Shown piece after piece: positions 3,954 to 39,269 of a stretch of 64,000 nt of DNA. Origin of the DNA: a virus. Within the stretch, counting starts at the first letter, position 1; every line of letters starts with the position of its first letter. The stretch is from the IMG/VR virus record IMGVR_UViG_3300022602_000001. The stretch is one strand, 5' to 3'. The translations under genes and the position numbers were made by a program. A model generated the notes under the pieces. The model had not been told where the DNA came from, did not search any database, and was given only the letters and a program-made list of their open reading frames with translations.

Positions 3954-6900
3954 ATGTCCTACGTAAAGAGCAAGCAAATAGGTTATCCCTTAACTGGATC
4001 ATTCACTGGATCATTTTTTGGAACTTTCAGCGGAAGCATTATTGGAGTGCTGAGCGGGAGCACAAGCAACTCCCTGACTGCATCCACAGCGGTGAGCTCG
4101 TCGTTCTCTTTGACCAGCTCATACACCCTTCAGGTGGCAACTGCCTCATATGCCGTAACATCGTCCTATACGGTGTCTTCTTCCTATGCAACTTCTGCTT
4201 CTTACTCTCTGTCATCTAGCTACGCTGTTAGTTCTTCTTACTCAACTCTGTCGTTGACAAGTTCGTATGCACAGCAAGCTTTGAGTGCATCTTACTCTTA
4301 CACTGCGTCCACCGCAGTAAGTGCATCTTATGCAGTGTCGGCTAGCAATACAGTTAGTGCAACTTCTGCTTCTTACTCCTACACAGCTTCAAGCGCAGTG
4401 AACTCATCAGCTTCGTTAATATCAGTGTCAAGCTCTTACGCTGTCACAGCTAGTTACGCATCCACCTCTTCATTTTCTTTAGTATCTACAACCAGTTCGT
4501 ATTCAATACAGGCATCAAGTGCGTCATACGTTAGCACGGCAAGTTACGTTGCTAGTTCTTCTTATTCTTATCAGTCTTCTACGTCGTCGTATTCGTTGAA
4601 CAGCGGACTGCTCAGCGGAACTTCATCTGCCACATTTGCAACAACTGGAAGCAACGCATTTGTTGGGACTCAGATCATAACAGGATCAATAATTAGCACA
4701 TACAGTGGCAGCTTGGGAAACACTATAAATTTAAGCACAACAACAGGCAGCCTATACGACGGAAATATATACTTTACTCAAACTGGATCAAACCCACAAT
4801 TGTATTTTTTCCAAAATGGAGTTTCTTGGTTTTCAAGCAGAAATAATTCGGTGTTTTTTACGGACGTGTCTTCTTTTTACTTGTCAAGCTATTCAATAAC
4901 TATAACTACAAATGGATCTATAAATCTTAGAGGATACATTTCTTTAGGATACACATCATTCGATTCAGGAATAAATCAGTTCGTGAAGGTCGGTGGAAAT
5001 TATGCGTCGTTTTCTTTTACTGGAAGTTCATCATCCTCCGCCACAAGCATAATTTTTCAGGACAAGAATTATACAGTCGCAGGCCTAGACGACGTGAACA
5101 GTCTAACTTCCTCCTTGTCAAGCAGCTACGTAACTCTAAACACAGCTCAAACTGTGTCCAGCTCAAAGATTTTTGTTGGAAATCAAACTGTCAGCGGAAG
5201 TTTGAGCGTGACAAGCGGCATCACGGGGTCGTTATTTGGAACGGGATCCCAAGCAGTTTCAAGTTCGTACTCAGCAACTGCGTCGTATGCACTTTCCGGC
5301 CCGCTTCTATCTGGTTCCTACATACTGAATACGACATCAACTCAGGTAAGTTCAAGCTTGGCGATCGATGGCACAATTGGAATAGGGCAGTCGGCTAGAC
5401 CAGGAAATAATCTTGACATCCAGTCGTCTATCGGAGGCACAAGCTTTGGCACCTCCGATCCAACTGCCTCTACAGTTCTGTACCTCAACAGGTCTTTTGG
5501 AACTCCAGCTTCACCAACAATTCCAACTAGCACAGGTTCGATAGGGTCCATAAATTTTATGATGTACACTGGTACGGGATCTCCTGACACAACCACCTAT
5601 CGTGAGTCTGCAAAGATAGTGGGAGGGATGGACGGAATTCCAACTTCTTCTTCAATACCTGGATATTTGTCATTCAGAACAACTCCCTCAGGCTCAACAA
5701 GTTCTGTGGAGGCACTGTGCATAAATTCTACAGGTGTATCTGTGTTTGGAGGGTACACTCCAACTGGTTCAGCACTGACCAATGCAAACATATTAAAAGC
5801 AGTAACTAACAGCACAACTGGTTTAGTTGGCTTTCAAAATTTGAATGCTGCTGGATACTCAAGCTTTGATTATTACGATAATACTGGTACGTTTACACTA
5901 AACACTGGATATGCCAACGCAAGCGCTTCAAGCTTTGCTGGTTTAGTTTATTGGAACACCACTAAAGATATGGTGTATGCTTATAATATTATTGAATGGC
6001 TTCGTTTTAACAGCGCAAATAGTAGAGTAGGTTTACTTACACCATCTCCAACCCATACCCTTACTTTAGGTTCAACCGCTACAGGATTGTCGGCTTACAA
6101 CACATCAGACCAAACCACAAACTACGAAAGGATTGTTGGACAGTGGCAATCAAATGCGTATACAATAGGGAGCTATGCTGGTGGAACTGGTACTTTAAGA
6201 TCTATTGTTTTAGGAGTATCTGCTAATACAGGTAGTACAACAATATCAAATGGAAATGCAAGAATATTTACAATAAACTCATCTATATCTGCAACAGCAG
6301 GTTTTTATGATTTCAACTCAATTACTGGTCTCACACCAAGTATAACAACCTTTCAGGGTACAGCAGCAGCTTCAACAAGCTCACAGAATTGGGTGTCAAT
6401 ACAGCCTACAATAAGCCAATCAAGCTCTGCTGGCTACTCTGCTTTGTTGGTGCAGCCGTACGAACAGGCAATTGGTTCAGGCAACAGGTATTTAATAAAT
6501 GCAGGAACAAATTCCGCTTTAAATGGAGCAGGGTCGTTCAACCAACTGTTCTCAGTTGCAAGTAACGGAAAGACTGCCATAGGATCGACCAATAATAGAA
6601 CGTCTGTTTTGGCGGTGACTCCATCACCAACCAACAGCTCAAATGTAGCTTGGGGATCGGTCGGTCCTGTGTTCAGCGTCAATGCAGGGTCAATTGTAGA
6701 CACCACCTCTAGCGGAAGCGTCGCATCAGTCACCGCCATAAGCTCCTTTGCCAATGCAACTCTATCTGCGTCGAGCGCAGTCACGTACTCAAACGCAACA
6801 CTTCTGTACTTGGGCTCTCTTTCAGCAGGAGGCAGTGCGTCTCTAGTAAATCCAACGTCTTTGTACGTGTCAGGATCACAGTATACAGGAAATGTATATG

Positions 6901-27332: not shown

Positions 27333-28363
27333 TGGAAGACAGACACAAAAAAATGATGGAATTCCTTGGAAAGGAGGACCAGAGCAAAAAAGCAGCACCC
27401 TTAAAAATAAACGATCGGGTGCTCATAGTGGACTCGCTGAACTCCTTCATAAGGTCTTTCACAATAATAAACCACGTAAACAAGTACGGAATCCACATAG
27501 GGGGACTCTCTGGATACTTGAAGTCGCTGGGGTACGCTATAAATTTGGTGAGGCCAACTAGGGTGATGCTGGTTTTCGACGGCCAGGGAGGGTCTACCAA
27601 CAAGAGGTACCTCTACCCTGAGTACAAGGCGAACAGAGGGTACAGGAGGGTGACCAACTGGGAGCTGTTTGACAACCAGGAGCAGGAAGCAGAGTCCATA
27701 ACCAACCAAATACTGAGGCTGATAGACTACCTGAAGTGCCTCCCCGTCGACCTGCTGTCAATAGACAAGATAGAGGCGGACGACGTGATTGGGTGCCTGT
27801 GCAACAATCTTCAAGGAGAGGTGACCATAGTTTCCAGCGACAGGGACTATCTGCAGTTGGTCAACGACAGGGTCTGCGTATACTCACCAGTGAAGAAGAA
27901 GTTCTACGAGCCAAAGGACGTACTGAAAGAGTATGGAGTGACTCCACAGAATTTTCTGATGCAGAAGGTCATAACCGGCGATGCAGGAGACAACGTTCCA
28001 GGAGTCAAGGGAATAGGGCAAAAGACCCTTTTAAAGCACTACCCCGAACTGTCGGAACAGGAAGTGTACACTCTAGACGAGATGTTGAACAAGGCAAAGT
28101 CAAACAGCGCAAGTGCCTACAAAAAGATAGTTGCTTTTGAGAGCCAGCTCAGGATAAACGAAAAGCTGATGGACCTTAAAAAGGTGAACATACCGGAGGA
28201 TTCAATGTTGGTGATAGAGGAGGTTCTGAGCAGCCCAAATAAGCTGTTCAGGCCAAAGGAGTTTGCGGAGCTGTACGAGGAGGACGACCTAGGAAAGAGC
28301 ATAAACAACCTGCAGTTGTGGCTGTTTGAAAAGTTCCATGCTCTGTCAAAATACGAACAATAA
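27332..28363 (+). CDS. 5'-3' exonuclease/flap endonuclease (T4 RNase H-like)
   Basis: VDSLN, FDG, YKANR, EADD, SSDRD, GD.GDNVPGVKGIG.KT motifs. Confidence 0.92.
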   Translation: MEDRHKKMMEFLGKEDQSKKAAPLKINDRVLIVDSLNSFIRSFTIINHVNKYGIHIGGLSGYLKSLGYAINLVRPTRVMLVFDGQGGSTNKRYLYPEYKANRGYRRVTNWELFDNQEQEAESITNQILRLIDYLKCLPVDLLSIDKIEADDVIGCLCNNLQGEVTIVSSDRDYLQLVNDRVCVYSPVKKKFYEPKDVLKEYGVTPQNFLMQKVITGDAGDNVPGVKGIGQKTLLKHYPELSEQEVYTLDEMLNKAKSNSASAYKKIVAFESQLRINEKLMDLKKVNIPEDSMLVIEEVLSSPNKLFRPKEFAELYEEDDLGKSINNLQLWLFEKFHALSKYEQ

Positions 28364-28379
28364 AAAAAACAAAAAAGTT

Positions 28380-28844
28380 ATGTACCAAGAAGTATACGGA
28401 GACCTGATTAAATTGACAAAAGACGGGCATTTTGACGTCATTACCCACGGTTGCAATTGCATGTGCAAAATGGGAGCAGGGATTGCTCCACAGATGGCCA
28501 GAGCATTTGGATGCAACGGATACCCACTGGAAGAATTATCAACAGAGGGAGACATGGACAAATTGGGAAGGATCGACTGGAAGTACTACCCAATCTCTCC
28601 CAATAAAAGCGTAGCGGTGGTAAACTCTTACACACAGTACTCTCCAGCGCCATGGCTTAAGCCGTTGGACTACGAAGCGCTGACGCTCTGCATGAGAAAA
28701 ATCAATCACGCATTCAAGGGAAAACATGTTGGACTTCCGCAAATAGGTGCCGGCCTGGCAGGAGGAGATTGGGAAAGGATCAAACAAATAATACAAACGG
28801 AATTGAAGGACTGTAACACAACAGTTGTCATATTCAAAAAATAA
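28380..28844 (+). CDS. Macro-domain (ADP-ribose-processing) protein
   Basis: GDL, HGCNC...MGAGIA, N.YTQ, P.IGAGLAGG.W motifs; start at aaagttATG 28380. Confidence 0.88.
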   Translation: MYQEVYGDLIKLTKDGHFDVITHGCNCMCKMGAGIAPQMARAFGCNGYPLEELSTEGDMDKLGRIDWKYYPISPNKSVAVVNSYTQYSPAPWLKPLDYEALTLCMRKINHAFKGKHVGLPQIGAGLAGGDWERIKQIIQTELKDCNTTVVIFKK

Positions 28845-28849
28845 AAATA

Positions 28850-29641
28850 ATGCCAGTACTGAACACGTTGCAGAGTTATGGAAATGGTTTCCAAATAAAA
28901 GTGCTGTCCAGCCTATTGAAGCACAAGGAGTTTTTGCAAAACGTCAACGACATACTCAGCACAGACATGTTTGACTCCCCTGCGCACAAGTGGATAGTGT
29001 CCGAGACGCTCAGGTACTACCACAAGTACCACACGACCCCAACCATGGAGTCGCTTCAGGTGGAAGTAAAAAAGATCGACAACGAGATTCTTAAAGTGGG
29101 AGTAATAGACCAGCTCAAGGAGTCCTTGAAGGCAATAAACGACGACAGGGAGTACATAGAGCAGGAGTTTGCAAACTTTTGCAGAAACCAACAGTTGAAG
29201 AACGCAATACTTGAGTCGGTTAAGCTCCTTGAGAAGGGCGAGTACGAGGACATAAGGAGCATAATAAACACGGCCGCAAAGGCCGGTCAGGACAAGACGA
29301 TAGGCCACGAGTACGAAAAGGACCTGGAGACCCGCTACAGGCAGGAGCAGAGGTCGCCTATTCCCACTGCATGGCCCCAGGTGAACGAGCTGCTAATGGG
29401 AGGGCTTGGAGTGGGAGACCTAGGAATCATATTTGGAAATCCTGGAGGCGGAAAGTGCATTGGGCCTAACTCCATAGTAGAAATAGAGTACGAAGAAATA
29501 GGCGTCGATGTGAACAACAACGGAAAGACAACGACCATTTGGTTTGATTCTTTTGCTGAGTTCAACATAGACGGAACGCACATGTGGGGGCACGAAGTAA
29601 AAAAGTTCTTTGAATTTGTTGAGGCCCAAAAATTAAATTAA
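28850..29641 (+). CDS. DnaB-like replicative helicase, N-terminal half fused to split-intein N-fragment
   Basis: Helicase sequence runs to GNPGGGK, then CIGPNSIV (intein block A, Cys1 at 29456); 61-aa IntN then stop. Confidence 0.88.
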   Translation: MPVLNTLQSYGNGFQIKVLSSLLKHKEFLQNVNDILSTDMFDSPAHKWIVSETLRYYHKYHTTPTMESLQVEVKKIDNEILKVGVIDQLKESLKAINDDREYIEQEFANFCRNQQLKNAILESVKLLEKGEYEDIRSIINTAAKAGQDKTIGHEYEKDLETRYRQEQRSPIPTAWPQVNELLMGGLGVGDLGIIFGNPGGGKCIGPNSIVEIEYEEIGVDVNNNGKTTTIWFDSFAEFNIDGTHMWGHEVKKFFEFVEAQKLN

Positions 29642-30059
29642 AAAGTTACATATGCTAAAGACCAGAAAAGTCCAGAGAAAAATTTCAATGGAAAATTTGT
29701 TCATGAAGTTGGCAATAGATCCCAGACCAAACAATGTTAGGCTGATTGATTTTCCCCTAAAGGTGAAGACTCCCCACGGCTACAAACAAATAGTCAATTT
29801 GTTCACCACTGAAAAACAAAAGAGGGTCACAACCTACTTCTCAAATGGAAAAACTCTGACCAGTTCAAACCAGCACTTGCTAAAAGTGGGAGAGGAGTGG
29901 AAAAAAGTCGAAGAGCTGCACAAGGGAGACTATGTGACAACAGAAAAGGGAACAACAAAAATAACAAAAAAAGTGCACCTCAAGAATGACAAAGTCCTCT
30001 ACGACATGTCCGTTGACGAGGTCCACTGTTATTATTCAAACGGGTTGCTCTCGCACAAC
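29456..30059 (+). mobile_element. Atypically split mini-intein (IntN 61 aa, IntC 136 aa) in the helicase Walker A motif
   Basis: Cys1; block B-like LTSSNQHLL; block F VLYDMSV; terminal SHN followed by Ser+1. Confidence 0.88.
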
Positions 30060-30830
30060 TCCTGGTGTTTGATAAATTTGGGAGCAGCAGCAGTTAAGGC
30101 GGGATACACGGTCTGCCACTACACTCTTGAACTGTCGGAGGACTACGTTGGAAAGAGGTATGACGCCATATTTACGGGAATTGATGCTCAGCAGATACAC
30201 CTACACAAGGACAAGGTGGCCGAAGCAATAGAAAAGCTTCCCGGAAAGCTGATCATAAAAGAGTACCCCATGGGAAAGGTTGGACCAAACACCATTGAGT
30301 CCCACATTCAGAAGTGCAGAGACCTCAAGCACCCTCCCAATCTCGTTATAATAGACTACGTGGACCTTTTGAAGAGCAAAACAAGGTCCATAGATCCAAA
30401 GGACGCCATAGATGACGTGTACACTGCGGTGAAGGGGCTGGCAAGAGAGCTAAAAATACCAATATGGACCGTTTCCCAGGTTAATCGCATGGGTTCTAAG
30501 GACGATGTTATTGAGGGAGACAAGGCTGCAGGATCCTACAACAAGATGATGATCGCGGACTTTGCCATGTCTTTGTCAAGAAAACGTCAGGACAAGGTGA
30601 ACGGCACTGGCAGGATCCACATAATGAAGAACAGGTACGGTGGAGATGGAATGACGTACGGTGCAAGAGTAAACACTCATAACGGATCGATTGAAATAAA
30701 CAGCGAAGAAATTGGAGATGAAGATTTAACATTTGACACTGGCCAAAAACAGCCCTTTCAGGGAAAAACAATGTTCACCCTGGACGAGAAGAGCTACCTG
30801 AACAAAAAATTCACAGAGCTGATTGGCTAG
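29652..30830 (+). CDS. Split-intein C-fragment fused to C-terminal half of DnaB-like helicase
   Basis: ...GLLSHN|SWCLINLG, then HYTLELSE, IIDYVDLL, WTVSQVNR, KNRYG helicase motifs. Confidence 0.9.
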   Translation: MLKTRKVQRKISMENLFMKLAIDPRPNNVRLIDFPLKVKTPHGYKQIVNLFTTEKQKRVTTYFSNGKTLTSSNQHLLKVGEEWKKVEELHKGDYVTTEKGTTKITKKVHLKNDKVLYDMSVDEVHCYYSNGLLSHNSWCLINLGAAAVKAGYTVCHYTLELSEDYVGKRYDAIFTGIDAQQIHLHKDKVAEAIEKLPGKLIIKEYPMGKVGPNTIESHIQKCRDLKHPPNLVIIDYVDLLKSKTRSIDPKDAIDDVYTAVKGLARELKIPIWTVSQVNRMGSKDDVIEGDKAAGSYNKMMIADFAMSLSRKRQDKVNGTGRIHIMKNRYGGDGMTYGARVNTHNGSIEINSEEIGDEDLTFDTGQKQPFQGKTMFTLDEKSYLNKKFTELIG

Positions 30831-37637: not shown

Positions 37638-39269
37638 ATGAGCACAACAACAAACGTTAGCGGGACAGAACTCAAGGAGAGGCTGCTTTCAGGAATCAAC
37701 AAGCTGAACCATGCGGTGTCTTCCACTCTTGGGCCAGGGGGAAGAACAGTTCTCATCAGGGAGCAGAGCGGCGAGGTGAAAGTCACAAAGGACGGAGTCT
37801 CTGTTGCAAAGTCATTCCACAAGCTGGAGGACGACATAGAGGACCTTGGAGCAACGCTGGTGAAGCAGGTGAGCATAAAGTCTGCAACCGAAGCGGGCGA
37901 CGGCACAACTACGTCCACTCTGCTGGCCACAAGGATTGTGGAAGAGGGACTGAAGAACATAAGACAGGGCACAAACGCAGTCGAGATAAAGATTGCAATT
38001 GACAAGGGCGTGGACGACGTCATAAAGCAGATAAGGAGCACTGCCAAGGAGGTGTCCTCCGAGGACCAAATAAAGCAAATAGCAACAATATCTGGCAACA
38101 ACGACGAGGAGGTCGGAAGCCTGATAGCAGTCGCAATAGAGAAGGTGGGAAGAGAAGGAGTCGTGACGATAGAAGAGTCAAAGACCGGAGAGACCAGCCT
38201 AGAAATAGTGGAGGGAATGCAGTTCGACAGAGGGTACAAGTCCCCCTTCTTTGTAACAAACAACTCCAGCATGACGGCCGGCCTGGAGAACCCATACGTA
38301 CTGCTGTACGATGGAAGAATATCTACCGCAAAGGACGTCCTTGAGTCTCTAACAAAGGCAAACACTGACAACAGGCCTCTGCTGATAATTTCTGAGGACA
38401 TCGGCGACGAGGCACTGGCCACGCTGATCGTGAACAAGATGAGAGGACTAGTTCAGGTGTGCGCCGTAAGGGCTCCAGACTTTGGGGACAGAAAGACCCT
38501 GATACTCGAGGACATAGCAGTTCTCACAGGGGGCCAAGTCATATCGAAGGACAAAGGCCACAAGCTTGACAAACTCACTCCTCAACAGTTGAGTGGATTC
38601 TTGGGCTCGGCCCGCCTGGCAACCGTGTCAAAAGAGGAGACGACCATAGTAGACGGAAGGGGAGACGAGAGCAAGATTGCTGCCAGGGCCGAAGAGATAA
38701 AGGACCAGATCGACAAGGCCACCTCTTTCTACGAGAAGGAGAAGCTGCAGGAGAGGCTGGGCAAGCTCGTCGGCGGAGTGGCAATAATAAACGTTGGAGG
38801 AAACTCTGACATAGAGATAAGGGAGAAGAAAGACAGGGTGGAGGACGCTCTGTACGCAACAAAGGCCGCCCTTGCGGATGGAATAGTTCCCGGCGGAGGC
38901 GCAGCTCTCTACAGCGCGTGCAGTGCCATTGAGCCGAGCGACTCGGACAGCAGGAGCACTGCAATTGCAAAGGAGGTGCTAAAAAAAGCCCTGCAGTCTC
39001 CGTTCAAGACCATACTCTCTAACGCAGGCGTTGAGAACTGGTACGAGTTCGTTCCAAACGCGGAGGAGGGGACAATATACAACGCAAAGAGCCACAGGAT
39101 GGTGAATGCCCTTGAGGCTGGAATAATAGACCCTGCAAAGGTGGTGATCACGGCCCTGAAGAATGCTGCCTCTGTGGCAGGAACAATTTTGACGACAGAG
39201 TCTGTTGTCTACGAAAAAAAATCAAAGGACGAAAAGGAAGAGCCAAATCCAATGGCTGGACTGATGTAA
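37638..39269 (+). CDS. groEL: Chaperonin GroEL
   Basis: TLGP.GR, TKDGVSVAK, AGDGTTT, EGMQFDRGY.SPFF, GIVPGGG motifs. Confidence 0.97.
   Translation: MSTTTNVSGTELKERLLSGINKLNHAVSSTLGPGGRTVLIREQSGEVKVTKDGVSVAKSFHKLEDDIEDLGATLVKQVSIKSATEAGDGTTTSTLLATRIVEEGLKNIRQGTNAVEIKIAIDKGVDDVIKQIRSTAKEVSSEDQIKQIATISGNNDEEVGSLIAVAIEKVGREGVVTIEESKTGETSLEIVEGMQFDRGYKSPFFVTNNSSMTAGLENPYVLLYDGRISTAKDVLESLTKANTDNRPLLIISEDIGDEALATLIVNKMRGLVQVCAVRAPDFGDRKTLILEDIAVLTGGQVISKDKGHKLDKLTPQQLSGFLGSARLATVSKEETTIVDGRGDESKIAARAEEIKDQIDKATSFYEKEKLQERLGKLVGGVAIINVGGNSDIEIREKKDRVEDALYATKAALADGIVPGGGAALYSACSAIEPSDSDSRSTAIAKEVLKKALQSPFKTILSNAGVENWYEFVPNAEEGTIYNAKSHRMVNALEAGIIDPAKVVITALKNAASVAGTILTTESVVYEKKSKDEKEEPNPMAGLM

Follow-up and report, generated by a model that had tools for sequence, protein, structure and literature searches.

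What is to be made of a phage whose replicative helicase gene stops in the middle of its P-loop, also called the Walker A motif, and resumes, a few nucleotides later, in another reading frame? This question is raised by positions 28850-30830 of a 64,000-nucleotide (nt) stretch of viral DNA, IMG/VR record IMGVR_UViG_3300022602_000001, which we refer to as the window and on whose plus strand both parts of the gene lie. A sequence-only reading of the locus had proposed that the helicase is interrupted at Walker A by an atypically split intein, encoded as an N-terminal fragment (IntN) and a C-terminal fragment (IntC) on separate genes. Following up this proposal with structure prediction and a survey of relatives, we consider it highly probable that the locus encodes a functional, naturally split class-1 intein in the P-loop of a DnaB/gp41-like replicative helicase, where expression, the order of docking and splicing itself are what we infer from sequences and models.

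The layout of the two open reading frames (ORFs) agrees with that reading in most of its particulars. ORF1 (28850-29641; 263 amino acids, aa) encodes a DnaB-type N-terminal domain followed by IntN, and ORF2 (29652-30830; 392 aa), in a different frame, encodes IntC followed by the DnaB_C domain. The N-extein (28850-29455) comprises helicase residues 1-202, that is the N-terminal domain, the linker and the first half of Walker A, ending in GNPGGGK. Directly after GGGK comes Cys1 of the intein (ORF1 residue 203, nt 29456-29458), the start of a 61-aa IntN made up of an acidic core, Cys1-Glu14 (29456-29497; block A and strands beta1-beta2), in which C1 is invariant and the I/E/Y core conserved, and a tail of 47 aa (29498-29638), in which a lengthened beta2 runs to its end and is followed by a small beta-sheet and, last, a helix. 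The TAA stop of gene 1 plus a 10-nt spacer (AAAGTTACAT) precede the ATG of gene 2 (29639-29651; stop 29639-29641, spacer 29642-29651). IntC (29652-30059; 136 aa) opens with a basic head that forms strand beta3 (residues 1-12) and continues with helix alpha1 (MENLF) and three intein blocks: block B (LTSSNQHLL, 29856-29882) with the catalytic pair Ser72/His75, block F (VLYDMSV, 29994-30014) with the catalytic Asp118, and block G in SHN (30051-30059), corresponding to His135-Asn136. The C-extein (30060-30830) then begins with Ser+1, which completes GGGKS, and contains the remainder of the RecA-like ATPase domain (Pfam DnaB_C, 8e-14). The window thus has the full class-1 complement of block A Cys1, block B S-x-x-H, block F Asp, block G His-Asn and a +1 Ser.

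That this domain is an intein, inserted at a conserved host site of which an intein-free allele exists, is apparent from comparison with the helicase of Flavobacterium phage vB_FspM_immuto, which reads from GNPGGGK straight into SW across the insertion point. The N-extein aligns with immuto residues 1-202 over residues 1-202 without gaps (51% identity, both ending GNPGGGK) and the C-extein with immuto residues 203-425 (61% identity), starting exactly at ORF2 residue 137 (SW...). Because the immuto helicase is colinear across both junctions, the boundaries of the intein are exact, and splicing would therefore yield a colinear 458-aa helicase with its GNPGGGKS P-loop intact. Other helicase loci (L006-L081) likewise align to ORF2 solely from residue 137 onward. 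IntC residues 1-136 match Hint profiles (PT-HINT 6e-8, Intein_splicing 5e-6), and IntN alone, searched against Pfam, returns a single insignificant match (DUF2341, E 0.029).

Is the split real, and is it peculiar to this phage? Two short contigs of different metagenome projects, L084 (ENA) and L085 (JGI), have the same stop, 10-nt spacer and ATG as the window, with two single-nucleotide polymorphisms (SNPs) nearby; since these independent contigs share the junction, the split is not a sequencing error. Loci related at 85-89% identity (L002-L005) break at the same residue, with an ORF of 287 aa separating the halves. When IntC was used in a word-seeded search, approximately 35 protein clusters of C-fragments (defined at 90% identity; 46-99% identical) came to light, all sharing a common start: a Met, about ten mostly basic residues and then a V/I-K-I-G-D-L-F element. 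The same search returned six full-length unsplit helicases of 638-669 aa with the same intein; a seventh is truncated, and most of the insert described below is missing from its intein. When a profile of the N-terminal part was run against 1.84 billion representatives, it found 23 proteins, nearly all of them N-fragments of ~260 aa or unsplit helicases of ~640 aa, with a few truncated pieces; three weak multi-stretch matches to proteins of other lengths look unrelated. A survey of IMG/VR yielded 80 loci containing IntC, 74 of which could be classified: 48 are split with an endonuclease gene present (gap of 750-1370 nt), 18 are split without one (gap of -4 to 271 nt), as in the window, and 8 are unsplit, with no gap; the remaining 6 are incomplete. 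An arrangement of two genes, the first with a stop and the second with a start of its own, thus recurs across independent sequences, and the locus in the window is a naturally split intein rather than an artefact.

All parts of the intein are under purifying selection. Comparing the window with L003, the ratio of nonsynonymous to synonymous substitution rates (dN/dS) is 0.04 for the IntN core and 0.09 (0.089) for the 47-aa tail; IntC has a value of 0.05 and its head one of 0.13. Synonymous sites are saturated in comparisons with more distant loci, where the proportion of nonsynonymous differences (pN) is only 0.2-0.4; they are also saturated in the exteins, where pN is nonetheless as low as 0.05-0.10. 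Cys1 is invariant in 11 out of 11 N-part sequences, S72 and H75 of the block B stretch S72-N-Q-H75 are invariant in 30 sequences, and D118, S134, H135, N136 and S137 (that is, Ser+1) are invariant columns of the IntC alignment. Conserved catalytic residues in combination with purifying selection are not what decay or a purely structural role would predict. The opposite charges of the fragments, an acidic IntN core and a basic IntC start, are conserved as well: among 47 distinct members, IntN residues 6-19 are net negative in 46 (mean -3.5) and IntC residues 1-14 net positive in 44 (mean +2.7), a pattern like that in split inteins with the usual break, whose halves have been proposed to pair electrostatically (PMC2677866).

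Where in the intein fold does the break fall? We obtained an AlphaFold2 model of the intein of an unsplit relative (P0033:197-399; predicted local distance difference test score, pLDDT, 91.9; predicted template-modelling score, pTM, 0.86), which is 52-57% identical to the window IntC, and mapped the window onto it via two alignments, A2 and A4. In this model the long strand beta2 (residues 12-25) is followed by an insert (26-57) that comprises a small sheet (31-36, 41-44 and 47-50) and a short helix (51-57), then by a loop (58-62), the long strand beta3 (63-73), helix alpha1 (74-80) and the usual Hint strands. The gene break of the window maps into the 58-62 loop, which is thus the split site. 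The model of the unsplit relative forms the Hint horseshoe, and many solved inteins align to it at Z ~20 with root-mean-square deviations (rmsd) of 1.6-2.2 (VIA-align). Its top Foldseek match is VidaL (6vgv; E 9.5e-9), to which VIA-align superposes it with Z 19.7 and rmsd 2.2 over 144 of 145 VidaL residues, a score effectively tied with those of other inteins at Z ~20. Ranked by sequence profile, the solved inteins are headed by gp41-1 (4e-11), followed by VidaL (9e-10) and CatC (1e-7).

Work from the Mootz laboratory published in 2026 recognises two positions at which inteins are naturally split in an atypical manner, S1 just after beta2 (VidaL, PolB16) and S2 after alpha1 (AceL-TerL, GOS-TerL) (PMC13014065; also PMC10189870). 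By predicted secondary structure, the window breaks after beta2 and before beta3, alpha1 and block B and, because alpha1 (MENLF) and block B both lie in IntC, the break is topologically S1. To this extent the proposal of an atypically split intein is borne out, by the boundaries, the family-wide split site and the position of the break relative to beta2. What sets the family apart is the length of IntN. Natural atypical split inteins have an IntN of 15-37 aa (PMC13014065) compared to 61 aa in the window and 27-74 aa across the family (27-33 aa in L129 and L155-L165, 45 aa in L134 and up to 74 aa elsewhere). Only ~14-18 of the 61 residues belong to the standard Hint core; the tail, judging by the model, is a lineage-variable, family-specific insert of 40-50 aa at the tip of the beta2-beta3 hairpin that is kept on the N-terminal side of the break. 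In VIA-align, no solved intein offers a counterpart to the corresponding ~45-50 residues of the model. A search of the ESM Atlas with the IntN part gave no usable feature match, all structure rows having template-modelling (TM) scores <0.5, so that the insert is without recognisable relative. It carries an aromatic motif, W-F/I-x-P-W/F ... D-G-x-H-x-x-G-W-Q/E-V, that is conserved within sub-lineages. The sequence-only reading was right to call IntN extended, but the extension is not specific to the split, being shared by unsplit relatives (unsplit P0045 lacks most of the insert; other unsplit members have it). Its further suggestion that the tail serves as a regulatory or chaperoning module finds no support: since the insert also occurs in unsplit relatives and varies in length, there is no case for a role linked to splitting.

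The two fragments of the window are predicted to associate. A complex model of IntC and IntN reaches an interface score (ipSAE) of 0.82 compared to 0.01 for the best of three controls, with runs agreeing in at least 91% of contacts and partner pLDDT of at least 77. In calibration, 58 of the 80 solved complexes attained this mark, as did 2 of the 110 mismatched pairs; these counts are rough here as we supplied our own alignments. The best-defined contacts place IntN residues 7-12 (IVEIEY) between IntC 7-13 and IntC 36-39, a predicted pairing of IntN's acidic strand with the basic head of IntC. Also in the model, the IntC head and alpha1 have contacts with three parts of IntN, namely Trp29, Phe33 and the terminal helix, consistent with the insert enlarging the interface between the fragments.

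Taken together, these results suggest the following course of events. Lying only 10 nt apart, the two genes are probably co-transcribed and translationally coupled. The acidic, lengthened beta2 of IntN (IVEIEYEEIGVDV) would dock antiparallel on the basic beta3 of IntC (LKTRKVQRKIS) and on IntC strand 34-39, thereby completing the Hint horseshoe, while the small sheet and helix of the insert would pack against the IntC head and alpha1 and make the interface larger. Cys1 would then undergo an N-S acyl shift, presumably assisted by Ser72/His75 of block B, and the acyl group would pass to Ser+1. Cyclisation of Asn136, for which His135 and block F Asp118 are the likely helpers, would follow, with an O-N shift as the last step, and the product would be the 458-aa helicase with an intact GNPGGGKS P-loop.

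Might the two genes be an illusion? Imagine that the intein were in truth unsplit and that a one-base error near 29637-29639, a danger the sequence-only reading had itself pointed to, had created both the stop and the change of frame. Relatives do contain unsplit versions of the same intein and the junction lies within an A-rich stretch. However, the same error would have had to arise in two assemblies from different samples that differ by SNPs nearby and yet agree on stop, 10-nt gap and ATG. What is more, the split recurs at this very position in dozens of diverged relatives: of the 66 split loci in IMG/VR most have a gene of ~900 nt between the halves and cannot be indel artefacts, and the start of IntC with its basic head is conserved in all of the ~35 clusters. 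We give this explanation hardly any credence. Just as little attaches to a programmed +1 frameshift at AAT-TAA-A that would join the ORFs and let an unsplit intein splice in cis. The gap is a mere 10 nt and the frame of ORF2 is open from 29637, so that a +1 slip at the stop would indeed fuse the frames, but we recognise no slippery or re-pairing site (tRNA-Asn would be expected to mismatch on moving from AAU to AUU), and relatives with gaps of -4, 11, 12, 40, 41, 50, 108, 134, 170 or 241 nt, or with a whole nuclease gene in between, cannot use such a mechanism, yet keep the same halves.

If the split is real, the helicase might still be out of use, a decaying pseudogene broken by a mobile element. 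Deletion of the endonuclease gene, discussed below, would fit with ongoing rearrangement at the locus. Against this, both ORFs are intact, the low dN/dS of the intein parts and low pN of the exteins are not those of decaying sequence, the gene sits within a conserved replication module, and a partial check found no other DnaB-like ORF in the annotated part of the window; we regard decay as very improbable. Somewhat less far-fetched, albeit still improbable, is a scenario in which the halves associate but do not splice, the intein acting only as a dimerisation device or stalling at cleavage and the helicase being non-covalently two-piece or inactive. There is a precedent in NrdA of Aeromonas phage Aeh1, whose gene is reported to be split by a mobile endonuclease and whose parts assemble non-covalently (PMC3045599). 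If binding were all that mattered, however, we would not expect C1, S72/H75, D118, H135, N136 and S+1 to be invariant, or nearly so, among members at 43-89% identity, and a 197-residue domain retained inside the P-loop, between GGGK and S, should block nucleotide binding. A functional split intein therefore remains our preferred interpretation, keeping in mind that several points weigh against it: a 61-aa IntN falls outside the 15-37-aa range cited above; the fold prediction was made on an unsplit relative at 52-57% identity and not on the window's own pair; because split-intein complexes have already been solved, part of the complex score may come from such structures having been learned by the model, and hence show likeness as opposed to binding of this particular copy; production of both halves and splicing are things we infer; and a second intact helicase may be encoded elsewhere in the phage genome, beyond the 64-kb window.

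How did the helicase come to be encoded in two pieces? The sequence-only reading had observed that no endonuclease gene lies between the halves, and none would fit into 10 nt. Such a free-standing gene is the hallmark of a 'fractured gene' and, absent from the window, is present in 48 of the 66 split relatives. In L003, L082 and L083, the ORF between the halves has weak matches both to REase_MTES_1575, of the PD-(D/E)xK family (Pfam 7e-4 for L003), and to PHROG 22677 (phrog_22677, function unknown), and its stop overlaps the start codon of IntC. The L003 endonuclease has no match among PDB sequences, and we use the label 'Vsr-like' loosely, on the basis of the PD-(D/E)xK-type match and the motifs GDYWH...IIWE, neither of which amounts to a strong match. 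The spacer of the window, together with the last two codons of IntN, matches the final ~24 nt of the L003 endonuclease gene except for a 4-nt deletion. The spacer is thus likely what is left of the 3' end of an endonuclease gene since deleted, and the match is suggestive, but because of its shortness only suggestive, of a deletion of ~860 nt that removed this gene from the window lineage. It also bears on the aagtt motif before gene 2, which had been taken for the typical start context of this phage: only 7 of 55 gene starts have it, compared to ~5% of random 20-mers, and the motif is, judging by the alignment, inherited from the 3' end of the lost endonuclease gene. The arrangement in the window would then most likely go back to a 'fractured gene' that later lost its free-standing, Vsr-like homing endonuclease gene.

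We placed 45 distinct IntC sequences on a quick maximum-likelihood tree, whose well-supported branches require seven or more changes of state for the endonuclease-less loci and three or more for the unsplit loci; therefore, the nuclease gene has been lost many times, and lineages have switched between unsplit and split more than once. In addition, the proportion of synonymous differences (pS) between the window and L003 is 0.5-0.6 (0.49-0.58) in the intein compared to 0.8-1.0 in the exteins, which hints that the intein was exchanged between lineages more recently than the host helicase gene. One may speculate further that the insert at the tip of the beta2-beta3 hairpin gives a free-standing Vsr-like homing endonuclease an additional, non-standard place to land, where the family alternates time and again, and perhaps reversibly, between being unsplit, being fractured and being split without an endonuclease. 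If some of the unsplit members are re-fused halves, natural split inteins would not be evolutionary dead ends, and the insert would be kept to give the 14-residue core strand enough of an interface for finding its partner. We offer this scenario tentatively and would sooner bet against than on it.

The endonuclease genes and the helicase hold further features of interest. Just upstream of the endonuclease start, an AT-rich element (ATATTTATAATAAA) is conserved between L003:3121-3143 and L082:1026-1056 despite ~35% protein divergence; it may act as a control element, late-promoter-like or translational, of the sort that Dassa et al. described. A second split intein, inserted after SQVNR, interrupts the helicase of close relatives, some with an IntC 99% identical to that of the window (L003:4001-5107 and 5152-5649; L084:585-2248; L085). 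This one is gp41-8-like and broken at the usual site (IntN ~87 aa, IntC ~47 aa), and L084-type contigs have a 369-aa ORF between its halves. The window has a clean intein-free allele at that site (30488/30489). In a more distant relative, L083:4769-8167, the large subunit of ribonucleotide reductase is fractured, with a GIY-YIG endonuclease gene between intein-bearing halves, resembling the NrdA loci of Dassa 2009.

As to the wider setting, the neighbours of the helicase form a conserved replication module: a gp32-like single-stranded DNA-binding protein, a RecA-like protein, a 5'-3' exonuclease, the helicase, NrdB, NrdA and PolA. Between exonuclease and helicase the window has an ORF of 168-172 aa (28326-28844) that matches PHROG 335, 'phosphatase' (4e-43), and has no Pfam match at 1e-5; in phage immuto the helicase directly follows the exonuclease. 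A few kb downstream of the module lies a full-length GroEL/Cpn60-type chaperonin (37638-39269; Pfam Cpn60_TCP1, 8e-63).

How does the intein relate to known systems? With VidaL (PDB 6vgv/6vgw) and PolB16 OarG (8cpn/8cpo) it shares a class-1 Hint fold, a split right after beta2 and block B in a long IntC; indeed, the start of the VidaL IntC aligns by profile to the beta3/alpha1 element that opens the window IntC. IntN, in contrast, is 16 aa in VidaL and 15 aa in PolB16, the difference being the lengthened beta2-beta3 hairpin with its 40-50-aa tip insert. The host also differs, a PolB-type DNA polymerase for PolB16 (PMC10189870) and a helicase P-loop here, and VidaL and PolB16 have been shown to splice whereas the window intein is known from sequence and models. 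AceL-TerL, GOS-TerL and the Cat inteins, which split at S2 and reside in phage large terminases, likewise come from phages or metagenomes and have a short-IntN/long-IntC architecture, but they split after alpha1, with an IntN of 25-37 aa (PMC13014065), whereas alpha1 (MENLF) belongs to IntC in the window, and host protein and site are different. The 'fractured genes' of Dassa et al. 2009 (PMC2677866; gp41-1 to gp41-9) provide a close parallel to L003, L082 and L083, in that a gp41/DnaB-like helicase is broken within an intein and a free-standing Vsr-like endonuclease gene lies between the halves; as an endonuclease-less derivative, the window resembles the endonuclease-less gp41-7 locus (PMC2677866). 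Dassa et al., however, name the terminase intein as the single exception among their split inteins; the others are all interrupted between motifs N4 and C2, the usual site and the one occupied by nested endonuclease domains (PMC2677866). Unlike those helicase inteins, the present family breaks near the N-terminus of the intein and is inserted in the P-loop, while gp41-1 to gp41-7 are inserted at position 356 of P-SSM2 gp41. Finally, mycobacterial DnaB intein 1 also occupies the ATPase P-loop of a replicative helicase and makes helicase activity dependent on splicing (PMC6195587), but the mycobacterial and other DnaB inteins are unsplit, bacterial and only distantly similar, with MchDnaB-1 and the Msm class-3 DnaB intein scoring lower in structure comparisons.

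In kind, then, the system is a known one: the class-1 chemistry of the Hint domain, an atypical split at S1, a fractured gene and the disappearance of its nuclease gene all have precedents. What is new is the helicase P-loop as host site of an atypical split, the structured insert that gives a 61-aa IntN and a large family that spans all three states; the literature searched, which does not extend to subscription journals, yielded no description of this family. Few natural split inteins break close to their N-terminus, and there is demand for them in protein semisynthesis and labelling; those published amount to a handful, in terminase and PolB genes, and have an IntN of 15-37 aa. A family of ~35 clusters, or ~74 IMG/VR loci, all in the helicase P-loop, all with Cys1/Ser+1 chemistry, with IntN ranging from 27 to 74 aa and with unsplit relatives at hand, provides a comparison series for what an S1 split requires and whether the insert contributes to association. 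The family also records how a homing endonuclease gene entered an intein away from the usual endonuclease site and was then lost many times. For the freshwater and brackish-water phages concerned, an essential replication enzyme would depend on trans-splicing.

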